NCBI GenBank assembly: GCA_016839605.1
Contig: JAEOTX010000180.1
Span: forward strand, 1 to 34,772
Source of the DNA: Candidatus Thorarchaeota archaeon
Lineage (GTDB): Archaea > Asgardarchaeota > Thorarchaeia > Thorarchaeales > Thorarchaeaceae
Direction: 5' to 3'
Length of the DNA: 34,772 bases
In this document: one piece after another, positions 21,698 through 24,380 of the stretch
How the letters are laid out: every line of letters begins with the position of its first letter
Numbering within the stretch: the stretch's first letter is position 1
The notes under the pieces: generated by a model
The model's input: only the letters and a program-made list of their open reading frames with translations
What the model was told of the DNA's origin: nothing
Database searches by the model: none
Translations under genes and position numbers: made by a program

Positions 21698-22933
21698 TTA
21701 AGCGACATTTGTCTTATCGAGAAGTGGCTCAAGAGAGATCTCCATCTGAAGCCTTACTTTTTCTTCGAAAGACTCCAGTATCTCGGATTCAATTCTCACT
21801 TTGAAATCCTTTGCTCGAGCAATCTCACGTTTAATGTCGTCTCTGATTCTCAGCATATCGCTGCGATGATAATCAAGGTTCTTTTCAGCTTCATTCAGTG
21901 CCTCTTGGAGCTTAGCGCTTTTGGCATAAACATCAGAATCAGCAAACGCATGACGTTTCTCTTCCAATTCCTTTGCTTTCCCTTGAAGCTCATCTAGAGA
22001 GCCATTGCTAATTGCTTGGACTTCCTCGATTGCCCTTCGGGCCAGTCGATCTTTCATGGGAAGCTTGCCCCTCTCAATTGCCTCTCTAAGCCCAGTCAAG
22101 CCCTCCAACAAGCCAGGATATCCAATTGGCTCTTCCACGATGGCATCATAGGGGTTCTCAAAGTAGTCGTTCAACGCCTTCTGTCCTGTAGCACTCACTC
22201 GCACTCCTGTATCATGTTGGAAGAATTTCTTCACCTGTTTCTTAAGAGGGTTCAATTTCATTCTGAGCAGACCTGCTACATGGTCTGCCTCAGAATCAAT
22301 GTTCAGCAAATCTGCGACATTCGAGGTTTCAATGAATTCATTGTAGGCGTTCTGTGCTTCATCTAATTCGCTCCTTGCTGTTTCAATCTTCGTTCGAGTG
22401 GTACGGATCTGTTCCTCGTAGACCTCTTTACTGAAGCCAAGGTCTTGGAGAGTCTGAATTCTACCTCCGATGCGCTCTAAATCCTTGAGCCAGCTGAACT
22501 CGTAGAGGAGTTTCTGAATCTTGTTCATCTCCGACATGAGCTCCTTCATGCTGACATCCAACTGCTTGATAGTGCTCTTGTGCTTCTTATCCATCCGTCT
22601 AATCCAACGAGCACCAGCACCCCAGAGTTCTTGAATGAAACTTCGAATCTCGTCTTGAAGAGCCTCAGTACTTTCATACGTGATATCCTTGCCGACGTAG
22701 AAGTCATTGGTAATATCTTCGACCTTCATTGCGAATCTCGTCGCAATTCCTATGGAGTCATGGTCGTCATCTTCTCCGGGCTCTTTCAGGTTCCGTGACA
22801 TTTCCTGAATATCCTTCAGCGACCTCTCTGCAACCCTGTAGCTCTTCTCGGCCTTCTTCGTGAAATCTTTGGACCTCTTGGCCAAGCGCTTGCGATACCA
22901 TTTCTGTAACTGCTCGATTGTGAGGGTTGTCAT
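21698..22933 (-). CDS. Hypothetical helical/coiled-coil protein
   Basis: 411-aa charged helical ORF; AGGTGG SD; no recognisable motif. Confidence 0.8.
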   Translation of the reverse strand: MTTLTIEQLQKWYRKRLAKRSKDFTKKAEKSYRVAERSLKDIQEMSRNLKEPGEDDDHDSIGIATRFAMKVEDITNDFYVGKDITYESTEALQDEIRSFIQELWGAGARWIRRMDKKHKSTIKQLDVSMKELMSEMNKIQKLLYEFSWLKDLERIGGRIQTLQDLGFSKEVYEEQIRTTRTKIETARSELDEAQNAYNEFIETSNVADLLNIDSEADHVAGLLRMKLNPLKKQVKKFFQHDTGVRVSATGQKALNDYFENPYDAIVEEPIGYPGLLEGLTGLREAIERGKLPMKDRLARRAIEEVQAISNGSLDELQGKAKELEEKRHAFADSDVYAKSAKLQEALNEAEKNLDYHRSDMLRIRDDIKREIARAKDFKVRIESEILESFEEKVRLQMEISLEPLLDKTNVA

Positions 22934-23075: not shown

Positions 23076-23879
23076 ATGTCCGAGATCTTTGAAACCGGTA
23101 ACCGACGTCCAAGGCTCGACATCAGTTATGCTGTCGAATGTGCGTCATGAGGCGTGGGTCGCATCGGTTTCTACATTAGACGCCTCGGACTGATAGATCC
23201 CACCGGAAAGGAACGACTGCTGCTCAAGAATCCTGCGGACTATAAAGGCGGAATCTGGGCGTCGTATGTCGTGGATGGGACAGTTGCTGTCGTTGAGTCG
23301 ATTGAAGCCGAAACCATCTCTGTGGCGGAACGCAGACAGGAAAAGGGTAGCCTCAGTCTGATGTTGAACCACACGCCTCAAGAATTTGAGGAACCTGTGG
23401 TCACCTTCACGCTAGACATGTGGAGCTACAACAAACCAGTCTTATTGCTCCAGCATACGACAACGAACGTCAGTTCTAGCTACGTCCAAGACCTGAAGGC
23501 CTACAGTATCTTTGACTTCGACATTGGAGGTCCGATGAGCTACAAGGACGATAAGGGCACATTTGACGATGAGAACGGACTCGTCATAGCCTATGACGAA
23601 AGCCAGCTCTCTGTGGCTATGTCCTCACGGCCAAAACCAGATGGGTGGGAGATATCATCTCCACTGAAGCTCAAAGTAGAATCAGATAATCGCGACCTGA
23701 AGAACAACCCCGAATTGGGGCCGATGGACATTGCCACCGCTCTGCAATGCAACTTAGGCGATTTACAGCCGGGTGATAGCAGAACGGTAGAAATTGTCCT
23801 CGCCTCCGCGCACGGCCTAGACGAGGTAAGAAGCCTCATTGATGCGTCATGGGGCTTTTTCAAGAAGAAAATCCGATGA
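23076..23879 (+). CDS. Candidate selenoprotein (Sec25 in CxxU), 267 aa, unknown beta-rich family
   Basis: ATG 23076 gives MSEIFETGNRRPRLDISYAVECAS-TGA(23148-50)-G, in frame with ORF 23154..23879. A SECIS-like hairpin overlaps the stop codon. Confidence 0.85.
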
Positions 23880-23920
23880 AATCTACACCTAAAGCAATGC
23901 GGTGTCGATTGAGGCCGGGT
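23871..23920 (+). promoter_or_regulatory. Eukaryote-like type II SECIS element
   Basis: Helix I ATCCG/CGGGT. Core A-TGAA (23876-80) / TGAG (23910-13). Helix II ATCTACACC/GGTGTCGAT (8 of 9 paired). Apical AAA (23891-93) plus mini-stem GC-AAT-GC. Confidence 0.85.
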
Positions 23921-23940
23921 AGCAACCCGTGGAACGCAGC

Positions 23941-23990
23941 AGAAAAAAAGGAATGAGATGGGGTCACTCGTGAAGTGATCCCACTTCTCA
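23941..23990 (-). terminator. Hairpin plus T-tract terminator for the minus-strand wHTH gene
   Basis: TGGGGTCACT/AGTGATCCCA stem with outer TGAGA/TCTCA, followed on the minus strand by CCTTTTTTTCT. Confidence 0.65.
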
Positions 23991-23996
23991 CTCACA

Positions 23997-24380
23997 TTAC
24001 TGTTCTTCAAGGAAGTTAGCCAGCATCACAGCGGTTGCCGTGAGCTTTGCCAGCTGTCCTCTGTTTTCCATATCACCACCAGATAACAAACCCATGTCCA
24101 TTAAGGAACGGAGGTTCCATTTCACAGTACTATAGGCTACTGAAGTCCTGCGAGATACTAGGTCTGCTAACGCCGTCACTGTCAGATCATAATGCCTTAA
24201 CAGCTGTGCACTCACTCTCAGAACATGTTTCTGAGTCTCACTCATTCTCATATCTGCTAGAGATAGGAATGATGCAGCGAGGCTCTCAAAAGAAGGCTTG
24301 GCGAAAGGTTTGTGACTCTCTTGGAATACCTGGTTGGCACTAGAGAATACATTCACCTCTTTGGCGAATTTGGCACTCAC
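23997..24380 (-). CDS. Winged helix-turn-helix protein (start uncertain)
   Basis: MSETQKHVL...TVTALADLVSRRTSVAYSTVKWNLRSLMDMGLL...AKLT. Confidence 0.8.
   Translation of the reverse strand: MSAKFAKEVNVFSSANQVFQESHKPFAKPSFESLAASFLSLADMRMSETQKHVLRVSAQLLRHYDLTVTALADLVSRRTSVAYSTVKWNLRSLMDMGLLSGGDMENRGQLAKLTATAVMLANFLEEQ

Follow-up and report, generated by a model that had tools for sequence, protein, structure and literature searches.

The selenocysteine insertion sequences (SECIS) most similar to the element described here are known from Lokiarchaeota. Many selenoprotein genes of these archaea end in a UGA codon near the SECIS, and a minimal distance must apply (Mariotti 2016, PMC4989117). The AUGA motif of the Loki VhuU.1 element doubles as the stop codon (PMC4989117), and Loki UGA stops often overlap the AUGA (Huang, Xiao, Zhang 2024, PMC11227280). 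Both the overlap of stop codon and SECIS core and the argument that a UGA this near to the SECIS escapes recoding are already published for Lokiarchaeia (PMC4989117, PMC11227280). Here, we analyzed a stretch of 34,772 nucleotides from Candidatus Thorarchaeota archaeon (contig JAEOTX010000180.1; the whole stretch is referred to as the window), in which a gene on the forward strand (23076-23879) ends in a putative SECIS that includes the gene's own stop codon.

The type I eSECIS-like model of Huang 2024 (PMC11227280) comprises a 5′-GA...[G/A]A-3′ core, usually AUGA_GA, a stem of 7-15 bp with at most two mismatches, and an apical loop (8-20 nt) that opens with adenines. The corresponding features in the window are AUGA at 23876-79 and GA at 23911-12, a ten-pair stem with one mismatch and an 11-nt loop with AAA. 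The gene that carries the element at its 3′ end has an in-frame selenocysteine (Sec) UGA, supported by a Sec/Cys pair, and the genome has tRNA-Sec and SepSecS. As far as sequence tells, it is a type I eSECIS-like member, and Sec insertion is predicted. Like lokiSECIS, it combines an AUGA...GA core, a stem and an adenine-led loop at a position abutting or overlapping the coding end. Unlike in lokiSECIS, where the overlap is occasional, it is invariant across the family described here. A third hairpin and a codon-built helix I, together forming a three-way junction, distinguish it from the published Asgard type I and type II models, a comparison outside which the Thorarchaeota study of Liu et al. 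2018 stands; the supplements of Huang 2024 contain no mention of such a hairpin, junction or lower stem.

With the eukaryotic type I SECIS, which is bound by SBP2, the element shares a kink-turn-like AUGA/GA core, unpaired loop adenines and a 3′ position acting at a distance (728 nt here). The eukaryotic SECIS is located well inside the 3′ untranslated region and consists of two helices and an internal loop, whereas the present element sits on the stop codon and has a third arm. SBP2 is not known from Asgard archaea (PMC11227280). The Rfam models of the eukaryotic SECIS gave no match at gathering score anywhere in the window; lokiSECIS is likewise unmatched by Rfam models (PMC4989117). Euryarchaeal SECIS (Methanococcus/Methanopyrus) likewise occupy the 3′ end of selenoprotein mRNAs in archaea, and the VhuD elements also contain AUGA...GA. 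Assignment to the euryarchaeal type was rejected, as positions 23871-23929 contain neither a GAA_A bulge nor a run of G-C pairs in the upper stem.

Comparison of orthologues indicates that positions 23873-23929 are a functional Asgard-type, eukaryote-like SECIS for the UGA at 23148-50, 728 nt upstream. With a probability of about 0.78, the data are best explained by a SECIS that contains the stop UGA in its kink-turn core, carries a further hairpin (hairpin 2) as third arm and would be unfolded by a ribosome at the terminal UGA. The features referred to below are, with their coordinates and strand:

23076-23879 (+): selenoprotein gene, from ATG 23076 to TGA 23877-79; 267 codons plus stop, with an in-frame TGA predicted to be read through
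23148-23150 (+): in-frame TGA predicted to encode Sec, U25 of the CxxU motif C22-A-S-U25 (residues counted from ATG 23076)
23871-23875 (+): AUCCG, 5′ strand of a helix I proposed initially, with 23916-20 as partner; not supported as a functional helix
23873-23874 (+): CC, putative 5′ strand of the kink-turn C stem, inside the Ile and Arg codons; pairs with GG 23913-14
23875-23877 (+): putative kink-turn bulge G-A-U, in which G and A end the Arg codon and U begins the stop
23877-23879 (+): UGA stop; the U would be bulge position L3, and G and A the 5′ half of the tandem sheared G·A pairs (with A23912 and G23911)
23880-23889 (+): helix II, 5′ strand; pairs with 23901-10
23890-23900 (+): apical loop UAAAGCAAUGC, 11 nt, with AAA 23891-93 unpaired
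23901-23910 (+): helix II, 3′ strand; pairs with 23880-89
23911-23914 (+): 3′ core GA (23911-12), then C-stem GG (23913-14)
23916-23929 (+): hairpin 2, CGGGU-AGCA-ACCCG, conserved third arm, regarded initially as a competing hairpin

The terminal UGA codon and the core of the element

The 3′ end of the open reading frame (ORF) reads ...AAG AAG AAA ATC CGA TGA, and A23876 together with TGA 23877-79 forms the AUGA motif. The initial annotation, which was made from the sequence of the window alone, had placed the terminal TGA at exactly these coordinates as the UGA of the core and had suggested an alignment of orthologous 3′ ends. Orthologues were recovered at the DNA level and gave 78 loci in 20 clusters at 60% protein identity; 76 of them cover the Sec site, and the 3′ structure was analyzed on 64 distinct 3′ ends. 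The alignment confirmed the proposal: each of the 78 orthologues has a TGA stop, which follows an A in 75 cases and a G in three. The last sense codon is CGA in 62 orthologues, CAA in ten, CGG in three, CCA in two and AGA in one. As these codons end in A or G, the core is always AUGA (75) or GUGA (3), the two known SECIS core variants. Among the long ORFs of the same genome, TGA accounts for 39% of the stops and [AG]TGA for 23%. The invariance of the TGA stop is far beyond chance, even when each of the 20 clusters is counted only once, and the comparison shows that the UGA within the core is under selection to remain UGA.

The codons preceding the stop are constrained at synonymous positions. 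Arg(-1) is encoded by CGA in 49 and by CGG in three of 52 orthologues, with none of the other Arg codons used; Lys(-4) is AAG in 41/42 and Phe(-6) is TTC in 52/56 orthologues. For comparison, six of eight conserved residues further upstream use their synonymous codons almost evenly (normalised codon entropy 0.84-0.99). The proposal that the coding sequence ATC CGA (Ile-Arg, 23871-76) contributes to the structure held; these codons would supply bases of the C stem and the bulge. The KKIR tail lies beyond the last helix of the AlphaFold (AF2) model of the protein, in a region of lower confidence, which fits an RNA-driven conservation. RNA pairing appears to weigh as heavily as protein function on the C-terminal tail F-x-K-K-I-R-stop.

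Unusual synonymous constraint was also seen well upstream of the SECIS (23823-23837), where Leu(-14) is CTC in 47/53 and Glu(-18) is GAG in 45/50 orthologues. Pairing of the CUC of codon -14 with an invariant 3′ GAG was considered as an upstream competitor and rejected, since covariation of the flanking wobble base was no better than that of other wobble sites.

The core is best described as a putative kink-turn formed partly by coding sequence, with a CC/GG C stem, a G-A-U bulge, tandem G·A/A·G pairs and helix II. By sequence, the window contains the 3-nt bulge G-A-U, the tandem pairs (G23878·A23912 and A23879·G23911) and a C-G pair at -1, and its C stem is 2 bp long. The -1 pair, C23874-G23913, is C-G in 64/64 orthologues. 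The -2 pair connects the wobble base of the penultimate codon with alignment column 66 and occurs as CG, GC, UA and AU; among 39 wobble sites, this one has the most Watson-Crick matches to column 66 and is alone in displaying all four pair types. The 3′ GA is present in 60/64 orthologues and is followed by G in all 64. The observation that the UGA at 23910-12 is in frame (33 nt after the stop) was correct, but this second UGA is incidental, as U precedes the GA in only 25 of 64 orthologues.

Helix II of the window is A-U-rich and consists of ten pairs with one U·C mismatch at 23884/23906. Across the family, 94% of its cells are paired in a naive MAFFT alignment, and RNAalifold revealed compensatory changes at all eight counted pairs. 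The apical loop starts with GUAAAGC in 40/64 orthologues.

Compared with Kt-7-type kink-turns and k-junctions as described by the Lilley laboratory (PMC5061560, PMC10573300), a C stem of 2-3 bp precedes the third helix here, with the geometry deduced from sequence. In a k-junction, the third helix belongs to the strand without the bulge and is placed directly across from it (PMC10573300). Hairpin 2 starts 4 nt past the 3′ GA, after the C-stem bases, and is not at that defining position; classification as a k-junction was therefore rejected.

The position of the stop codon suggests how two UGA codons in one mRNA would be told apart. With the terminal UGA in its A site, the ribosome or its mRNA channel would hold helix I, the C stem, the core and the 5′ strand of helix II as single strands. 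That ribosome would face no folded SECIS, EFSec and Sec-tRNA would not be recruited, and a release factor would read the codon. UGA25, located 728 nt upstream, would be decoded while the SECIS is folded. The proposal draws on general ribosome geometry, and unfolding of the SECIS by a ribosome with the terminal UGA in its A site is mechanically sound; the same explanation was put forward for Lokiarchaeia (PMC4989117). It relies on the UGA lying within the core, a stronger condition than closeness to the SECIS.

Hairpin 2, helix I and related elements in other genes

About 90% of the cells of hairpin 2 are paired across the family, and compensatory changes occur at four of its five pairs, with variants such as CAGAG/CUCUG, CUGGG/CCCAG, AAGGG/CCCUU and CGGGU/ACCCG. 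The loop is nAGCA in most orthologues. The hairpin begins one nucleotide past the C stem and could stack beneath it. In most orthologues, both are enclosed by a helix I of 10-12 bp, one strand of which is the final five or six codons (F-x-K-K-I) and the other a UCUUCU tract directly 3′ of hairpin 2. In a model-fitted alignment, 73% of the helix I cells are paired with compensatory changes at 10/10 pairs; the naive alignment gave 64% and 7/10. Unconstrained minimum free energy folds of single orthologues produced the three-way junction in most cases. In the aligned sequences, covariation is thus shown for helix I, helix II and hairpin 2, while any role of hairpin 2 can only be suggested.

The initial annotation had interpreted this region differently, with AUCCG:CGGGU as helix I and CGGGU:ACCCG as a hairpin competing for the same bases. 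Perfect pairing of CGGGT 23916-20 with ACCCG 23925-29 around an AGCA loop was confirmed, and covariation, suggested as a check on the helices, was found for helix II (8/8 pairs) and hairpin 2 (4/5). The proposed helix I did not withstand the same comparison. Among the 64 3′ ends, a single sequence has a compensatory change, at one of the five pairs; three pairs have 55% of their cells paired and the remaining two 80%, and this pairing comes from conserved bases alone. The helix and hairpin 2 are mutually exclusive, and in the nearest-neighbour model of the window they do compete for CGGGU, with base-pair probabilities of ~0.3 for AUCCG:CGGGU and 0.53-0.59 for hairpin 2. The hairpin covaries family-wide, and in the putative kink-turn register the core needs no CGGGU. 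As this register leaves CGGGU free, core and hairpin 2 can coexist, which would make the hairpin a partner rather than a competitor. The further suggestion that an alternative hairpin limits SECIS refolding and so tunes Sec insertion found no evidence; the hairpin is a covarying element of the whole family.

A covariance model composed of the core, helix II and hairpin 2 was searched against the same genome and matched two sites only, the present locus (63 bits) and C233:4248-4313(-) (54 bits). Of 24 further genomes in the same family, 19 contain a match, and of 16 outside it none does. The motif was found in 18/19 genomes of the family with a full SepSecS, the genome of the window included. 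In one genome (G020) the motif is present without SepSecS, and no Sec motif was found at that locus.

The selenophosphate synthetase homologue of the same genome has a similar 3′ end:

C192:23092-24099 (+), with the downstream region to ~24175: SelD gene with its Sec TGA at 23107 and its stop TGA at 24097

The stop codon of this SelD gene is the UGA of the AUGA core in a type II SECIS with a UCC/GGA C stem; the element has a second hairpin CCGUCGCGAGCGG and a helix I, GAGACUGG/CCAGUCUC, made from codons. Thorarchaeal SelD genes end in ...UUCCC[A/G/C] UGA in 17/17 orthologues of the same family, with A or G before the TGA in 16/17. The RNAalifold consensus consists of the UCC/GGA C stem, a C-A/G-U bulge, helix II, a hairpin 2 of 4 bp with loop nGCrA at the same position as in the present gene (3/4 pairs compensatory), and a codon-built helix I of 7 bp, GAGACCG/CGGUCUC, with three compensatory pairs. 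The same layout in SelD, with TGA in 17/17, indicates that the three-way junction with the stop codon in the core is a habit of the lineage rather than a peculiarity of one gene.

The second match in the genome lies 64 nt past the TAG stop of an unannotated 72-codon ORF (C233:4372-4590, minus strand). It encodes a signal-anchor helix, a Thr-rich linker and the sequence NCTVG-U-PPPLLVALPPNP (NCTVG-U-PPPLL) with an in-frame TGA. The ORF and its TGA are conserved in two relatives (L124, L127), and the C233 element has an equivalent of hairpin 2 at the same place. This ORF is a candidate for a second new selenoprotein family. In two further relatives, small membrane-anchored ORFs (L125 and L126, from genomes G017 and G021) lie ~60-70 nt upstream of matches to the model. 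They contain ...PPDNRT-U-EDYEYID... and ...DSDNRT-U-ELYEYIDH...; the in-frame TGA is conserved, a SECIS of this kind follows, and the ORFs may represent a third candidate family. As the AUGA is not the stop codon in these small-ORF genes, the overlap is fixed within a gene family and not demanded by the mechanism.

These elements bear on whether hairpin 2 belongs to the SECIS. The SECIS could consist of the kink-turn and helix II only, with hairpin 2 a separate 3′-end element for mRNA stability, 3′-end formation or binding of an unrelated protein. Such an arm is missing from the published Asgard type I and II models, the conserved GC-containing loop (nAGCA; nGCrA in SelD) resembles a recognition site, and nothing encloses the hairpin in the clade that the window forms with L003-L008, L052-L054 and L121. 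A covarying helix I, however, encloses hairpin 2 in most orthologues and also in the SelD and small-ORF elements, and joins it to the core as one domain. The hairpin starts 1-4 nt past the C stem in three unrelated gene families, and a covariance model that requires it matches selenoprotein 3′ ends only. A separate function of hairpin 2 is thus unlikely.

Less likely still is a SECIS in which helix I is AUCCG (23871-75) paired with CGGGU (23916-20) and CGGGU:ACCCG is an exclusive alternative that tunes Sec insertion. Both pairings are possible in the window with the probabilities given above, the bases are conserved, columns U20-G72 and C25-G70 can pair in most orthologues, and some lower stem might be needed in the window's clade, where the long helix I is missing. 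The pattern of substitutions contradicts this arrangement: changes from G to A in columns 70/71 of the hairpin are compensated inside the hairpin and not in the proposed 5′ partner, and columns 21 and 71 are unpaired in 38/64 orthologues. Moreover, the kink-turn register with its invariant C-G makes the helix unnecessary, and SelD and the C233 element have the hairpin at the same position with 5′ strands unable to pair with it. The AUCCG:CGGGU pairing appears conceivable in the window's clade alone, and nothing there requires it.

With hairpin 2 as an arm of the SECIS, the Thorarchaeal elements might constitute a distinct class, in which a kink-turn leads through a 2-3 bp stem to a three-way junction with a GC-loop hairpin arm, and the closing helix and part of the core are supplied by the last codons and the UGA stop. 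We put this forward tentatively, as a possibility that is doubtful at present. If true, the history of the SECIS from archaea to eukaryotes would gain a step that is lacking in the published type I/II models. The third arm could be the docking site of an archaeal SECIS-binding factor, EFSec or L7Ae, and the fixed place of the stop codon in the core would link termination to the unfolding of the SECIS. Third arm and codon-built helix I provide a concrete structure with which the missing archaeal SECIS-binding activity can be sought, and an improved model for finding hidden selenoproteins.

The use of a stop codon as part of the core is itself a further, very clean example of the Lokiarchaeal observation, invariant over 78 orthologues and 17 SelD genes. 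Leaving Liu et al. 2018 aside, what appears new relative to the literature is the family-wide invariance, the recruitment of the last codons for helix I and the C stem, a covarying third arm shared by three gene families, and the family that carries the element.

The selenoprotein gene and its genome

With the TGA read as Sec, the protein is predicted to run MSEIFETGNRRPRLD...ECAS-U-G...KKKIR, its N-terminal part being MSEIFETGNRRPRLDISYAVECAS-U-G.... Gene callers start the ORF at GTG 23154, downstream of the Sec TGA, and all database homologues are truncated calls of at most 241 residues. The codon aligned to U25 is TGA in 75 of the 76 orthologues covering the site and TGT (Cys) in one, and Sec is residue 25 in 73/75. 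The 24 residues N-terminal of Sec are conserved in 75 orthologues, with M1, G8, P12, R13, D15 and C22 invariant. The sole Cys orthologue is L017:2007-2889, where TGT is at residue 24 in its own numbering.

An AlphaFold (AF2) model calculated from 31 full-length sequences reached a predicted local distance difference test (pLDDT) score of 90.7. The protein is predicted with high confidence to be a stand-alone beta-supersandwich. Residues 3-5 and 13-22 form strands of the modelled fold, and the CxxU motif is located on its first hairpin. The fold resembles the N-terminal domains of GH94 cellobiose phosphorylases, GH116 and GH15 enzymes and aldose epimerase; among the better matches, template modelling (TM) scores were 0.54-0.66 (query-normalised). 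A Pfam search with the selenoprotein gave no match. Invariant protein motifs are DFDIGGPxSYKDD and GPxDIAxxLQWN. A carbohydrate-linked redox role would be a guess.

Contigs from metatranscriptomes of four studies cover parts of the gene, and those from three of them bridge the Sec TGA with the codon unchanged. These contigs weakly support transcription of the region upstream of the Sec TGA, and DNA carry-over is possible.

The window corresponds to contig C117 of a genome of 3.08 Mb that is 80% complete. All nearest relatives of the gene are in metagenome-assembled genomes of Thorarchaeota/Promethearchaeota. The genome contains a tRNA-Sec (57 bits, over the Rfam cut-off) that directly adjoins SepSecS (372 bits), and its SelD also has an in-frame TGA. 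The source organism is a Sec user. On comparative evidence, the gene is a genuine selenoprotein gene.

Published Asgard selenoprotein families are SelD, FrhA, HdrA, FrhD, PrxL, AhpF-N and DsbA-like (PMC11227280, PMC13188914). The present family is Thorarchaeota-only and is not among the published Asgard selenoprotein lists (PMC11227280, PMC13188914). This unlisted carrier family and the second candidate family with the same RNA suggest that the Thorarchaeal selenoproteome is under-counted.

That the 3′ structure is no SECIS at all but an unrelated RNA or a terminator, and TGA 23148 a true stop or the lesion of a pseudogene, is hardly credible: the missing Rfam match, the ordinary fold energy and the gene callers' start after the TGA would agree with it, but the 24 codons before the TGA are conserved in ~75 genomes, a Cys variant exists, the residues they encode belong to a confidently predicted fold, AUGA/GA, AAA loop and stem length agree with the published criteria, element and Sec machinery occur together, and the same RNA is found 3′ of SelD, a known selenoprotein.

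The clade of the window and neighbouring features

Several observations weigh against the interpretation of 23873-23929 as an active SECIS with a kink-turn core and a third arm. The fold energy of the window sequence is ordinary compared with shuffled sequences (z = 0.01), and a scan of the window at Rfam gathering thresholds returned no SECIS or other family. Support therefore comes from the comparison of orthologues and not from thermodynamics, and the evidence is comparative throughout. The proposed C-stem register depends on one invariant pair, which cannot covary, and one partly covarying pair. Among the RNA contigs from the four studies, none reaches the SECIS. The Cys orthologue L017 still ends in A-TGA and keeps helix II, the GA and hairpin 2, without helix I; the switch from Sec to Cys could be recent, or the conservation of the RNA could partly serve another role. 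Finally, the clade of the window lacks the 3′ strand of helix I, and an A-run follows hairpin 2 instead. SECIS activity in this clade could be lower or protein-dependent.

What is left of the element in this clade is a 2-bp C stem, the core, helix II and hairpin 2. Among the pairings tried, no conserved or convincing replacement for the lower helix was found. UCCG:UGGA is possible in the window sequence only, with CCG:CGG in four relatives and nothing in L006, L007 and L053. GCUU:AAGC and poly-U/poly-A helices were discarded as well, being not conserved in the clade.

The A-run 3′ of hairpin 2 is the T-run of the probable terminator of a convergent gene. Between the convergent genes, positions 23943-23990 contain, besides this A-run (read as a T-run on the minus strand), a hairpin GGGGUCACU...AGUGAUCCC that is kept in the window's clade; the two together look like the terminator of the minus-strand gene 23997-24380.

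Upstream of the selenoprotein gene, a divergent gene (21698-22933, minus strand) encodes a 411-residue coiled-coil protein with a weak match to VPS28 (ESCRT-I) (E = 0.0034, under the Pfam cut-off). A VPS28-like (ESCRT-I) gene is expected in an Asgard genome.

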